This document shows positions 4,971-53,193 of a stretch of DNA of 64,000 bases, in pieces. The DNA lies in NCBI GenBank assembly GCA_965204745.1, contig OZ242010.1:800001-864000 (forward strand), written 5' to 3'. This DNA is from Candidatus Latescibacterota bacterium. GTDB taxonomy: Bacteria > Latescibacterota > UBA2968. A program made the position numbers and the translations under genes. Position 1 is the first letter of the stretch. Every line of letters begins with the position of its first letter. Under the pieces are notes generated by a model. That model was not told the DNA's origin and did no database searches. It worked only from the letters and a program-made list of their open reading frames with translations.

Positions 4971-5071
4971 AGATGGGATTTTAGCCACAAACGGGGTACA
5001 ACTAGCGATAACCCGTTCAAAGGCGAGCAGTGTGTAGGGGCGATGCCCCCGTGCTCGCCCAAAGATACAAG
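4971..5071 (+). mobile_element. Miniature element copy A (REP-like hairpin + IS110-like terminus)
   Basis: AG|ATGGGATTTTAGCCACAAA...GTAGGGGCGATGCCCCCGTGCTCGCCC-AAAGATACA|AG; similar copies at 44386-44502 and 52019-52146. Confidence 0.65.
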
Positions 5072-5168
5072 AGGGGGTACTATTTGGATCAGTTCCCCCT
5101 CCCATTATGATAGACAGCGAGTTGTATTCGGTCAAGAATTTAATTTTTTTCTGCGAATCGCCCGCGGG

Positions 5169-6224
5169 TCACCGCCGCTCATTCTCGACCTCAACCGCTT
5201 GAAGCAGGGCTTTGATGAAGCCGAATTGAAAGGCGAATGCCTGTTCAAAATGCCCAGGCGCATCGTGCCCGGGCGCGTGGTCGGGGATGACCATGTGCGG
5301 GTAGCCCACTTCTTTGAGGGCGTGCATGAGGACAAACATGTTCATATCGCCTTCGTCCGGATACACTTCTTGAAACTCGTTGCGCCCCCCCGTGATGTTG
5401 CGAAAGTGGATGAGGTGAATTTTCTTGCGCTCGCCAAAATAGCGAATGATGTCCGCGACTTCGTTTCGCGGATCCAGAACGCTTTCGGCCATGCAACCGA
5501 GGCACAGATTGAGGCCGTGGTACGGGCTTGGGCAAATGTCGATAAAATGCTTGAACCCATCGTATCCGCCGAGCACGCGATCAACGCGCTTGTACCCGGG
5601 CGGCAACCACGGGTCGCACGGGTGGCAGGCCATTCGCACCTTGCATTCGGTGGCAACCGGAATGACGCGCTCTAAAAAAAAGGTGATGCGTTCCCAATTT
5701 TGTTCGGCGGTGACGGGTTCGTCGTAGCGCGGGGTGTCGGCGTCCGCTTTGGACAAGTCCCAGGTGGAATAGCGCACATTGCCGCGCCCGAGCGGGACGC
5801 TCTCCGTGCGTTGGTTCTCCATTTCGCAGAGAAAATACTTCAGCGCGGGGATGCCCGCATCTGCGGCGGCGCGCACCATGTCGCAGGCGATTTCGATTTC
5901 TTTTTCGCCGGCTTTCATGTTGCCGCACATAAACTCGGGCACAAAGTCGCCATTGAGATTGAGGTGTTGCACGGGCAAGGCGACCATCTCCACCTCGATG
6001 CCGTGTTTTGCGGCTTTTTCCTTTTTTGCCACGAGTTCTTCCACTGTCCAGCCACTGCTCGGATCCGGCGTGATTTCCCGAGCGTCGTTGATCGCCATGT
6101 TTGTGACGCCACACCGCGCGAGAAATTCGAGGTGTTCGTCAGACGTGGAAAAACGTTGCGTGCCAATGTGCATGCGCGGATTTTCCGCGTCCCAAACTGC
6201 ACCTGCATGCGTTTCTGCTGCCAT
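5169..6224 (-). CDS. uxuA: Mannonate dehydratase (UxuA family)
   Basis: ATG 6224 after AGGAGA; MACHPCDP, HFRN, GDMNM, PDHAP motifs. Confidence 0.75.
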   Translation of the reverse strand: MAAETHAGAVWDAENPRMHIGTQRFSTSDEHLEFLARCGVTNMAINDAREITPDPSSGWTVEELVAKKEKAAKHGIEVEMVALPVQHLNLNGDFVPEFMCGNMKAGEKEIEIACDMVRAAADAGIPALKYFLCEMENQRTESVPLGRGNVRYSTWDLSKADADTPRYDEPVTAEQNWERITFFLERVIPVATECKVRMACHPCDPWLPPGYKRVDRVLGGYDGFKHFIDICPSPYHGLNLCLGCMAESVLDPRNEVADIIRYFGERKKIHLIHFRNITGGRNEFQEVYPDEGDMNMFVLMHALKEVGYPHMVIPDHAPGHDAPGHFEQAFAFQFGFIKALLQAVEVENERR

Positions 6225-6236
6225 GGTGATTCTCCT

Positions 6237-6409
6237 GTGAGACGTGAGACGTGAGACGGAAGGCGTGAGACGTGAGACGTGAGACGTGAGACGGAAGGCG
6301 TGAGACGTGAGACGTGAGACGTGAGACGTGAGACGTGAGACGTGAGACGTGAGACGTGAGACGTGAGACGTGAGACGTGAGACGTGAGACGTGAGACGTG
6401 AGACGTGAG
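6237..6409. repeat. Heptamer tandem repeat (GTGAGAC)n, roughly 24 units
   Basis: Directly visible, with two GGAAGGC variant units. Confidence 0.95.
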
Positions 6410-6546
6410 AAGATAGCGCGATTATTTTTTTTTGCAACAATGATTATTGTTAGCGATGCGAAACTTTGCTATCTTCAAAAGCAATGACCCACTGACAACT
6501 GACAACAGATGGCTTGGGCGACGTGCCCGCCCGATAGGAGCCTGCC

Positions 6547-7797
6547 ATGAACGTTGAAATCAACAAGCACGCCCTTGACCGCGTGCCATTGTCGATTATT
6601 TTTGACGATTCAACCGTGCTGGTCAATTTGAATTACTTTTGGATGCGCGACCGTCAGGCCGTGGAAGGCACGGCGTATCGCTGGGAAGATGTGCCTGTGG
6701 TGCATCCCGAATCGTTCACGCGCGAATTTGCAGAGTTTTGTCTGGAGAATGACGTCAAGGGCAAGTTCAGCGTGGTGCCGTGCCCGGCCGCGCTTGGGCG
6801 CATTGACCACGGCTTGCCGATGTTTTCGCAAGCGCAACAAGCGCAGTGGTTGGCAATGTGCAGAGAACTGATCATGCCGAATTACGACATCACGCCGGAG
6901 ATGATCACGCACACTTTTGTGGTAGATCTGGAAACCCTGCGACCCATCGATCCGAATTTGTGGGAGCAACACGGGTGGAATAATCTGCCGACCGACGAAG
7001 AAGAGCGCGTGATGGATTACATCGCGCTGGCGTGCGAGATTTTGCACAATGTGGGGTTGACCCCTGCCGGCGTGACGAGTCCGGGCGGGTTTGGTAATCC
7101 CATCGACTTTTACGCCAAGTGCGCGGAAAATGCCGTGCGCCGGGTGACGGGCAACCCAACGCCCTATTTGTTCAAGCGGGTATCGTCCAAGGGGCCGGTG
7201 GATTGCCCGGTGTGGTATCCCAAACCCGAGCGCGGCGAGGCCATGGGCGAGGTCATCGCAGCCACGGGCGACAAAACCGGGTCGTGGACCGGCTACGGCG
7301 AGGTGGATGTGGATTATTACATCGCGTCAGACCTTCGACGCGGGCGGTTGCCCGAGGTGATCGACGCGGGCGATCCGGGCGTGATGATCAGCCACTGGCA
7401 GGGGTTTTACGGCTTGCACGATGGGGATCGGCGTGGGTTTCGGGCGTTTCAGACCATCGTGCGCCGGCTCAAAGAACGCGATCCAAATGGCGAGCGGTCA
7501 CAGTGGCGCAAGTGCAGCGAGATCACCAATTACGCAATCGCGTGCGAGATGGCCGATGTTTCGGTGGCTGGACAGCGCATCGCACTCGATTTGCCCGTGC
7601 AAGTGCCGGCGTTCACCTTGCGATTGCGCGATGTGGTGGTCGCAGGCGTAACGGTAAATGGCAAACCCCTGACGCGGGCACAGACGCGCTCCGCATTTGA
7701 AGATGGCACCTTTTACCGAGAGGGCGATGTGACCTTTGTCGCCTTCACGCCAGAAGCCCGAGCGGTGCGGGTTGAGGTGGAAAAAGGGGAGAGGTGA
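6547..7797 (+). CDS. Hypothetical protein, possibly polysaccharide-deacetylase-like fold
   Basis: AGGAG RBS; IIFDD, EMITHT and SPGG motifs; 416 aa. Confidence 0.55.
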   Translation: MNVEINKHALDRVPLSIIFDDSTVLVNLNYFWMRDRQAVEGTAYRWEDVPVVHPESFTREFAEFCLENDVKGKFSVVPCPAALGRIDHGLPMFSQAQQAQWLAMCRELIMPNYDITPEMITHTFVVDLETLRPIDPNLWEQHGWNNLPTDEEERVMDYIALACEILHNVGLTPAGVTSPGGFGNPIDFYAKCAENAVRRVTGNPTPYLFKRVSSKGPVDCPVWYPKPERGEAMGEVIAATGDKTGSWTGYGEVDVDYYIASDLRRGRLPEVIDAGDPGVMISHWQGFYGLHDGDRRGFRAFQTIVRRLKERDPNGERSQWRKCSEITNYAIACEMADVSVAGQRIALDLPVQVPAFTLRLRDVVVAGVTVNGKPLTRAQTRSAFEDGTFYREGDVTFVAFTPEARAVRVEVEKGER

Positions 7798-51903: not shown

Positions 51904-52018
51904 GGCAGGACCCTTGTATCTTCGGGCGAGCACCGGGGCATCGCCCCTACGACGGGGATTGGGCGGGGCGGGCTGACAACTGACAACTTGAGAGGCACAG
52001 CGCGGTGGCCTTCTCCCT

Positions 52019-52146
52019 CTTGTATTTTTGGGCGAGCACCGGGGCATCGCCCCTACACACTGCTCACCTTTGAACTGGCTATCGCCAGTTGTACCCCGCT
52101 CGTGCCTTTTGTGCCTTTTGTGGCTTTTGTGGCTAAACTTTCATCT
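52019..52146 (-). mobile_element. Miniature element copy C
   Basis: Reverse-orientation homologue of copies A and B; bounded by CT at both ends. Confidence 0.65.
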
Positions 52147-52150
52147 CACC

Positions 52151-52900
52151 TCATCCGCGGCCAATGTACGGCATTTTGGTCGCGGTGATCGTGAGGAATT
52201 GCACATTGGCGTCTAAGGGCAGGCTCGCCATGGAGAGCACGGCTTGGGCCACGCCGTTGACATCCATCGTGGGTTCGACCAAAGTCGTCCCATTGGCTTG
52301 CAGGACCCCGGCTTGCATGCGCTCGGTCATGTCGGTTGCTGCGTTGCCAATGTCGATTTGCCCGCAGGCGATATCGTACTTGCGCCCGTCGAGCGCGGCG
52401 GATTTGGTGAGGCCCGTCACCGCGTGCTTGGTCGCTGTGTACGGCGCGGAGTTGGGGCGGGGAACGTGCGCGGAGATCGACCCATTATTGATGATCCTGC
52501 CGCCCATCGGACGCTGGTCTTTCATGAGCTTGAACGCCTCCCGAATGCAGAGAAACACGCCGGTCAAGTTGGTGTCGACCACGGCTTGCCACTGTTCGTA
52601 CGTCAAATCCTCGAGGGCGATGCCACGCGGCGCGCCAATGCCCGCGTTGTTGAACAACACGTCGAGCCGCCCAAATTTCCCTTGGGTCTTGGCAAAGAGA
52701 TTTTCCACAGACGCCGGATCCCCGACATCCGTGGGCACGACCAAGGTCTTGGATGCGCCAGCTTCTCGCGCAGTGGCGTTCAAGGGGGCTTCGCGCCGGC
52801 CGGCCAGCACCACCGCATATCCCGCCTGAAAAAAGGCGAGCGCGGTGTGTTTGCCAATCCCGCTGCCCGCGCCCGTGATCATGGCTACTTTTTCAGTCAT
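52151..52900 (-). CDS. Short-chain dehydrogenase/reductase
   Basis: [25 protein letters not shown]. Confidence 0.93.
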
Positions 52901-52986
52901 CGTCAAATCTCCTGATGGGTGAAAGGTTGTCGGTATTACATGATAACATCCCAAAGGCATAAATAAAAAAATCTCTCTCCAAAGCG

Positions 52987-53193
52987 GTAAGAGGTGAGAC
53001 GCAAGAGGCAAGAGGTGAGACGCAAGAGGGAAGAAGGCAAGAGGGGAGAGGCAAGAAGCAAGATCGTAGGGGCGATGATCCCGCGCTCGTCCAAAGATAC
53101 AAGAGGGGAGAGCGGTAAAAGGTAAAAGGTGAGACGCAAGAGGTGAGAAGGCCGCCCAAAGCGGTAAGAGGTGAGACGCAAGAGGGAAGAAGG
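52987..53193. repeat. Degenerate heptamer array (GTAAGAG/GTGAGAC/GCAAGAG/GGGAGAG) with an embedded REP-like hairpin (53061-53103)
   Basis: Directly visible. Confidence 0.85.

Follow-up and report, generated by a model that had tools for sequence, protein, structure and literature searches.

A REP-like repeat family that shares its terminal box with a bridge-RNA IS110 element in an uncultured Latescibacterota genome

REP (repetitive extragenic palindromic) and BIME (bacterial interspersed mosaic element) sequences are intergenic repeats, present in hundreds of copies, in which an imperfect hairpin with GTAG at its foot is combined with short modules into mosaics. They are reportedly treated, together with the RAYT (REP-associated tyrosine) transposases, in a 2012 study by Ton-Hoang et al. 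The heptanucleotide STRR (short tandemly repeated repetitive) sequences of cyanobacteria are also intergenic, and are made up of tandem 7-bp units that come in several variants per genome. Here we describe a 64,000-bp stretch (the window) of a Candidatus Latescibacterota bacterium genome (assembly GCA_965204745.1, contig OZ242010.1), in which REP-like units end in a decamer box, AAGATACAAG, that is also the terminus of a resident insertion sequence (IS) of the IS110 family. The genome, termed G000, is a single contig of 5,482,115 bp with 56.5% G+C, and the window corresponds to G000:800001-864000. The evidence suggests that the shared decamer is no accident, that the present IS110 does not move the repeats, and that the two came to share a half-site by common history.

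Two IS110-family systems come closest to what is found here. In ISPpu9 of Pseudomonas putida (PMC12288879), recombination takes place at an AG dinucleotide, as in the present element, and the IS is accompanied by ssr9, a small noncoding module with this AG at its bounds, which can circularize by itself and is regarded as a selfish passenger of the IS110 transposase. ssr9 carries both end boxes of its IS (A/A' and B/B') and has three solo copies (PMC12288879), whereas the repeats described here share one end with the IS, are old, number more than 100 copies, and have no known circles. IS621 (PMC11208160) resembles the present element in its CT core, in its two internal loops that each hold a left and a right guide, and in the covariation of these guides with target and donor. 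However, IS621 targets REP hairpins, whereas the targets of the IS110 here are heptamer-array units taken in pairs; a heptamer found throughout the genome makes up its donor, in tandem, and the REP-like elements carry the donor half-site rather than the target. Among the literature matches listed, supplementary files not being covered, no IS110-derived miniature elements were found and ISPpu9 was the sole relevant case; none concerned the repeats or insertion sequences of Latescibacter.

The hairpin sequence GTAGGGGCG is found exactly at window positions 5034, 40243, 44465, and 53066 on the plus strand and at 51942-51950 and 52048-52056 on the minus strand. A preliminary description of this DNA had each of these six hairpins followed by the box or by a one-base variant of it, and this is the case: four are followed by the exact decamer (at 5062, 40264, and 53094 on the plus strand and at 51913 on the minus strand) and two by a variant (AAGATATAAG at 44493 and AAAATACAAG at 52019). 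Its three units with the bounds AG/AT...ACA/AG, where a slash marks the end of the element here and below, are likewise present, at 4973-5069, 44388-44500, and 52021-52144. The repeat features of the window are the following.

4973..5069, plus strand: long REP-like mosaic unit of 97 bp, with AG at 4971-72 and 5070-71
40243..40273, plus strand: short REP-like unit, a shortened hairpin with box, whose AAG at 40271-73 joins a truncated copy of a ~138-bp repeat
40475..40508, minus strand: box AAGATACAAG behind a different hairpin (TTAGACCAAC..GTTGGTCTAA)
44388..44500, plus strand: long unit of 113 bp, with box variant AAGATATAAG at 44493-44502
51913..51950, minus strand: short unit (hairpin and box), the box ending 7 bases upstream of the cas6 ATG at 51905
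52021..52144, minus strand: long unit of 124 bp, with box variant AAAATACAAG
52982..53063, plus strand: heptamer array of AAGAGGC-type units, left of the unit at 53066
53066..53103, plus strand: degenerate short unit, whose hairpin no longer folds (z 0.11) and whose box is intact

In the first of these units, the GTAG hairpin spans 5034-5060 (-7.3 kcal/mol, z -2.5) and the box 5062-5071. The right flank of the box in 53066..53103, AGGGGAGAG, is the left-target half of the IS110, and the CTCCCCT-CT flank reported earlier for the copy at 53094 is indeed there. Allowing up to one mismatch, the decamer occurs 10 times in the window against 1.77 expected, a number that none of 100 shuffles reaches. 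The genome-wide search that the preliminary description had called for returned 212 exact decamers in the 5.48 Mb of G000, against 2 for the reversed decamer used as control, and about 170 hairpins. Among 211 nonoverlapping decamer sites, 102 lie in hairpin contexts, 56 at IS110 ends, and 17 in a third repeat described below; the remainder are 7 sites that form small clusters and 29 that stand singly, roughly half of the latter being decayed hairpins.

The IS110 is present in the window as one full copy and one fragment, and the decamer forms the terminus of both, at 40042-40051 and 45531-45540, respectively, as had been noted from the start.

38759..40049, minus strand: full IS110 copy of 1291 bp, with AG cores at 38757-58 and 40050-51 and the end of the recombinase open reading frame (ORF) at 38775
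39858..40049, minus strand: bridge-RNA region of the IS110, with the guides read in the 5' untranslated region
39965-39958 and 39940-39933, minus strand: target guides CCCCTCTT and AGGTAAGA, respectively
39902-39894 and 39874-39867, minus strand: donor guides AGAGTATCT and ATACAAGA, respectively
45255..45541, minus strand: IS110 left-end fragment of 287 bp, 88.9% identical, which ends in the box and adjoins a CRISPR array

G000 harbors 52 full IS110 copies and 57 matches to PF01548, the DEDD (RuvC-like) N-terminal recombinase domain, of which the window match lies at 39321-39758. Read from the guides, the target is CCCCT-CT-TACCT and the donor, or circle junction, is AGAGTAT-CT-TGTAT. Ends and flanks were read from the 37 copies that have both exact anchors, and the guides fit flanks and ends in all 37. 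On the left, AGATACT/CTCTT stands in 37 of 37 copies, and on the right ..CTTCC/AAGATACAAGAGG in 36 of 37; in terms of the window's plus strand, the left end reads ..AGAGG[TC]A-AG/ATACTCTCTT (37/37) and the right end ..CTTCCAAGATACA/AG-AGG.. (36/37). Position by position, the flanks of the IS110 copies match the target at 84-100%. The target differs among lineages: in G000 it is CCCCT-CT-TACCT for the main family and CGCCT-CT-TACTT for a subfamily of 85% identity, while in two related genomes it is CC[TC]C-CT-TTTCT (G016, 83% DNA identity), where a CCCC guide goes with CCCC flanks and a CCTC guide with CCTC flanks, and TCGCCT-CT-CCCT (G018, 79%). With guides and flanks covarying in four lineages, this IS110 is a genuine bridge-RNA element, and its ends and CT core are borne out as they had been drawn. 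At the left end, the lineages have no more than TGTAT in common, the sequence of the 85% subfamily going on as GTTGTCAG and that of the main family as CTTGGAAG. A rival register, in which a 7-bp GTATCTT repeat forms the core, is ruled out by the donor guide, which needs TCTTGTAT, a sequence that cannot be formed unless GTAT and TGTAT both belong to the IS, on either side of a single CT. The fold of the bridge-RNA region alone is not distinctive (z -0.65), and Rfam gave no family at gathering score in the window, with chance-level matches only over 38700-40300. At G000:1122873-1124173, two IS110 copies stand head to tail, with AAGATACA-AG-AGGTA-AG-ATAC between them, from which it follows that the second copy inserted into a target formed beside the end of the first.

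Written on the plus strand, the sequence of the circle junction is CC-AAGATAC-AAGATAC-TC and that of the target is AAGAGGT-AAGAGGG. Each of the two thus consists of a pair of AAGANNN units, and recombination crosses over at the AG in the second of them. Tandem 7-bp arrays are found in the window at 6237-6410 (GTGAGAC, 24.9 copies), 40052-40100, 52982-53063, and 53104-53200. The AG/CT core is present in every array unit, and the IS110 inserts at pairs of such units. Counted as windows of the pattern A[CG]GNNAG repeated four times, the arrays amount to 1292 in G000, 1199 in G018, 4 in G016, and no more than 21 in any of the other 18 genomes of the genus. The IS110 targets arrays in G000 and G018, where they are abundant, and a site in the third repeat in G016, where they are near absent. 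These arrays differ from the cyanobacterial STRRs in phylum and unit sequence, and in that they contain the core of the resident IS110, which inserts into them. Another family of heptamers, (TGGTCAG)/(CAGTNGT)n, is found at 25965-26000 and at many other sites, often beside hairpin units. At 40119-40237 there is a 43-bp tandem repeat (2.8 copies), in which inverted heptamer units are followed by TTTTTTGATTGTCCT, and a related ..CTCACCTTTTT module interrupts 24 of the 173 G000 hairpins between GTAGG and GGGC.

The basic repeat unit consists of GTAG, an 8-bp stem with a 4- to 6-nt loop, a spacer of 1 to ~12 bases, and the box; in seven of eight representative folds, the hairpin starts directly after GTAG. 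Stems vary among species (GGGCGA.GC, GGACAGGC, GGGCAACC, GGGCGAAA). Units are mosaics of ~38-150 bp, with another hairpin, AACTGGCGATAGCCAGTT, and repeats of CACAAAAGG among their modules, and a BLAST search with one 126-bp copy found an AGCCAC..GTTCAAAGG module ~300 times and the hairpin module ~230 times. To the left, the 173 hairpins are preceded by the long form in 83 cases, by the inverted-array interruption in the 24 just mentioned, and by various other contexts in 66. The long form is bounded by AG/ATGGGATTTTAGCC and ATACA/AG and has subterminal hairpins at both ends, whereas short forms have no constant left end. The ends of the long form, ATGGGATTTTAGCC and TGTATCTTTGGGCG, are not inverted repeats, and only AG is common to both sides; the units thus do not show the terminal inverted repeats and fixed target duplication of a miniature inverted-repeat element of a DDE transposon.

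The repeats differ from the IS110 in age. Among 60 complete long units, the median pairwise identity is 80% and the nearest-neighbor median 91%, with none of the 50 scored reaching 97%, compared with a median identity of 99.8% across the 52 IS110 copies. The repeat family is thus old and now quiescent, and the IS110 is in a recent burst. Filled and empty alleles, which the preliminary description had proposed to look for, were found in part. A screen of 5587 in silico junctions for paralogous empty sites gave one clean pair, filled at G000:2925008-2925125 and empty at 2926285-2926373, in which a 113-bp unit is inserted exactly as AG/AT..ACA/AG, ambiguous over 5 bp (AGATG); a different box-ended repeat forms a 180-bp insertion whose position is ambiguous over 11 bp, and the rest were array matches. 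No clean orthologous single-unit indel was seen when 400 kb of G016 and G018 and some 20 loci of 3 kb were compared with G000; one long unit is orthologous between G016 and G000, and the intergenic DNA of the two relatives differs from that of G000 by complex blocks of arrays and repeats. Contigs assembled from four sets of public runs and placed on window positions 36000-55000 break at repeats. They include a joint of 38727-40049 that omits the IS110, with 37 other letters between (one run, side 23), and a joint of 51953-52067 that omits 113 bases with one hairpin (two runs from two studies, side 29); both lie below the reliability limit and are not counted as alleles.

With a GTAG-footed imperfect palindrome in many intergenic copies, the repeats are REP-like elements, whose expansion took place within a single small clade of a Latescibacterota genus that is uncultured. 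They differ from REP/BIME sequences in having a conserved 3' box at a variable distance from the hairpin and no RAYT gene, and regular inverted pairs were not noted, although this was not tested systematically. They could nevertheless be classical REP or PATE (palindrome-associated transposable element) sequences moved by a Y1 HUH transposase (RAYT, or TnpA of the IS200/IS605 type) or another single-strand enzyme that has since been lost. Like the REPs of enterobacteria, the repeats have GTAG where their imperfect hairpin begins on the 5' side, and this speaks for such an origin, as do the paired subterminal hairpins of the long units and their want of terminal inverted repeats. The preliminary description had allowed that a RAYT gene might fully explain the repeats, but none was found in G000, neither as a single-copy gene flanked by the repeats nor otherwise, and the Y1 domain (PF01797) has no match in G000 or G016, which hold 102 and 329 hairpins, respectively. 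Six Y1 loci read in relatives are IS200/IS605-like; four of them have a TnpB-like ORF next to the Y1 gene, and the hairpins that flank the six loci are of other kinds. There is also no strand bias along the chromosome, the hairpins being evenly spread (97 plus, 76 minus) and the GC skew showing no clear origin, and Y2/IS91 enzymes were not found in five genomes, by a search to which control genomes were silent too. A lost single-strand transposase therefore appears very improbable.

The preliminary description had instead viewed the repeats as miniature elements mobilized by an IS110 recombinase. In a general form, this explanation holds that the units are, or were, nonautonomous elements cut and pasted by an IS110-type bridge recombinase that uses the right-donor half together with a weak AT-CT left end. 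The right end agrees with it, as had been stated: the repeat end matches the right-donor half (TGTAT) at 5/5 positions and continues into the CT core, it is identical to the IS110 end at 10/10, and the right-donor guide pairs with it fully. AG follows ATACA in 149 of 180 cases and precedes the left end of the long form in ~90% (n = 174), head-to-tail units have one AG in common, and the clean filled/empty pair has the same bounds. The circles of ssr9 of ISPpu9 (PMC12288879) offer a precedent for such passengers. The left end, however, does not agree, a caveat already attached to the preliminary description: ATCCCAT in the repeats matches AGAGTAT at 3/7 positions, and in IS621 mismatches in either donor half are poorly tolerated (PMC11208160). 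The short forms, moreover, have no fixed left end at all. A passenger would be expected to carry its parent's recognition sequences at both ends and to lie in sites specified by the parent's target guides, and here only the right end carries them and the sites are not so specified.

Every IS110 copy seen in G000, G016, and G018 has one and the same donor guide, AGAGTATCT, which therefore never fitted the repeats. An IS110 whose left-donor guide does fit, the existence of which had been raised earlier, was sought by patterns that assume the loop frame of the present lineage. It was not found: in G000, a regular expression for such a guide matched three unrelated sites, against 55 for the real guide; the stricter and narrow pattern CCCATCTAAG..CATANACAAG gave none in 53 genomes of the order; and a metagenome scan with it gave 23 stretches, none IS110-like in DNA or protein. 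Eight unrelated metagenome contigs (L138, L139, L140, L145, L147, L153, L155, L159) have a conserved stretch ..AATCGCATCTTTCCCATCTAAGCCATTTTAAAACATA[AG]ACAAGTAG.. in common, comprising chance matches to the guide pattern that bear no likeness to IS110.

The flanks of the repeats do not behave as sites of the target guides either, contrary to what had been proposed. To the right of the repeats, AGGGG is exact in 20 of 180 cases (11%) and within one mismatch in 64 (36%); the corresponding values are 4.5% and 27% for any AG inside arrays and 0.2% and 2.4% for random genomic AG. The one clean insertion lies in CGCG-AG-ATGTG, which is unrelated to the target. No recent movement of the repeats is apparent despite the 52 near-identical IS110 copies. 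As regards distribution, the IS110 lineage is found in 3 of the 21 genomes of the genus (57 matches in G000, 8 in G016, and 18 in G018), and only these three have high decamer counts, of 212-294 per genome; because they are each other's closest kin and form one clade, this overlap counts as a single event. Yet box-ended hairpins persist in relatives that give no PF01548 match, G001, G009, and G014, which have 56, 35, and 37 decamers, respectively. In 9 of 10 sampled sites of G001 and 6 of 10 of G009, the box follows GTAG hairpins with different stems and spacers, and in G014 the sequences before it are a different hairpin and repeats of the AAGACAC type. Mobilization in trans by the present bridge RNAs is contradicted, since its predictions about the left donor, the targets, the age of the repeats, and the IS110-free genomes all fail. 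An ancestral bridge RNA with other guides may have acted in the past, and we consider it possible, if rather unlikely, that a recombinase of the IS110 type moves or once moved the units.

The third repeat, GTAGGCTACGCCTGTGCCTAC..GAGGAAGGGGG, throws light on another way in which the decamer may arise. In G000, 200 copies of it read GAGGA-AG-GGGG and 17, in at least three subfamilies, read GAGGA-AG-ATACA-AG-GGGG; the window copy at 50711-50727 has no ATACAAG. A pattern search for copies with and without ATACAAG gave 16/530 in G000, 1/99 in G018, 0/36 in G016, and 0/28 in G009. The additional 7 bp are the right-donor half plus the core. Four degraded IS110 copies are still found in the third-repeat site in G000, the very repeat that the IS110 of G016 targets, and, as the base before the core is A, an IS110 inserted there is flanked by AAGATAC on both sides. 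The ATACAAG insertion looks like an excision footprint of the IS110, in which the loss of the DNA between the AAGATAC repeats at the two junctions would leave ATACAAG as a scar.

It may be asked whether all boxes at the hairpins are such footprints, the hairpins having originally ended in ..CGCCC[AG]A-AG, the IS110 having left ATACAAG, and the scarred copies having then multiplied. The exact 7-bp polymorphism in the third repeat would fit this, as would the finding that 105 of the 173 hairpins have the box (with up to one mismatch) whereas 21 read N-AAG and then pass directly into the flank, and that about seven solo boxes lie inside heptamer arrays. On the other hand, no IS110 stands directly at a hairpin end among the anchored copies (37 in G000, 7 in G016, and 7 in G018), and the left-target side would be a variable flank that no single guide could match. 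Boxes also stand at varying distances from different hairpins in the IS110-free genomes, several of the seemingly unscarred copies resemble decayed boxes, such as AAGATAAG, and the hairpins would still need some further means of multiplying. We regard a footprint origin of the hairpin boxes as improbable.

The reading that we favor, with a confidence that falls slightly short of even, is that of a REP-like mosaic family of some age, with a terminal box that belongs to the heptamers from which the donor and targets of the IS110 were built, IS110 footprints being a second source of the decamer. The box would be one unit of the genome's AAGANNN heptamer system, on which both recombination sites of the IS110 would be built; this direction of borrowing is inferred, as is the way in which the repeats originally spread. 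The circle junction is AAGATAC-AAGATAC, crossed over at the AG (CT on the IS strand) with the right-donor guide pairing with TGTAT, and the target is two adjacent array units, AAGAGGT-AAGAGGG. Each repeat thus ends in the right-donor half-site and core, with no left-donor half and outside bridge-specified targets, and further decamers would arise anew, as 7-bp ATACAAG footprints, wherever an IS110 came and went.

Several observations weigh against this reading. The end of the repeat coincides with the crossover point of the IS110, which would be a coincidence unless such an enzyme once acted there, and the high decamer counts are confined to the three genomes with the IS110 lineage, if only as a single event. 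The preliminary description had placed one copy exactly where another repeat is cut off, and this holds at 40271, where the ~138-bp repeat is joined at AAG to the box; it has two window copies (40271-40407 and 40495-40618) and many in the genome at 75-85% identity, and all 12 of the other copies that were examined extend farther upstream. A second box end is joined at AG to a truncated copy of another repeat at G000:2089400, and these fusions suggest that the box end is recombinogenic. No enzyme was found for the spread of the repeats themselves among the Y1 domains of G000 and G016 or, with silent controls, the Y2/IS91 enzymes of five genomes; the rarer box-ended repeats, examined for an autonomous parent, hold no ORF, and the DNA adjoining them is another high-copy repeat. 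Finally, the footprint mechanism is itself inferred.

A bolder reading, which we consider doubtful though worth stating, takes the more than 100 dispersed box-ended hairpins as natural IS110 donor half-sites, which with the heptamer arrays would offer a bridge recombinase a field of substrates across the whole genome. In the past, this enzyme would have spread the units with minimal recognition of their left end (AT-CT); deletions, inversions, and 7-bp footprints would be the work that it still does at their ends, and the spacing of its CT cores would have shaped the 7-bp arrays. If true, no high-copy family of passengers of a bridge recombinase would have been known before, and the genome would be a natural case of bridge-mediated restructuring.

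The surroundings of the repeats in the window are also rich in mobile and repetitive DNA. A CRISPR array with 11 repeats (GTTTCAATTCCATAGTGGTTCGATTAAAAG) occupies 45573-46267, between the IS110 left-end fragment (45255-45541) and a DDE_Tnp_1 transposase ORF (46310-47407), the DNA of which has more than 40 copies in G016 at ~75% identity. Downstream of this ORF, the region 46310-51906 has cas genes with DevR/Csa2, Cas_CXXC_CXXC, and Cas6 domains. Just upstream of cas6, at 50567-50993, lies a composite repeat of ~430 bp with dozens of copies at 83-95% identity, and the contig depth in public runs spikes over the same interval. Seven public runs contain at least half of the words sampled from 40500-50400, and 15 runs from six studies contain some of them. 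The organism is probably sponge associated, because five of the runs with window sequence, from two studies, are labeled sponge metagenome.

Bridge recombinases are under development as genome-writing tools, and to our knowledge little is known of their effects on the genomes of their own hosts. The genome described here offers a natural system that can be read directly, with guides, donor, targets, and four covarying lineages, in which tandem heptamer arrays act as targets and more than 100 REP-like repeats terminate in the heptamer of the donor. Should the recombinase not act on the box ends, the case would show an RNA-guided IS that takes its sites from the repeats present in the host genome, and a shared terminus would be insufficient to infer mobilization. 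If it does act on them, scattered donor half-sites would drive rearrangement and the spread of passengers, which would bear on the risk of off-target events in editing.

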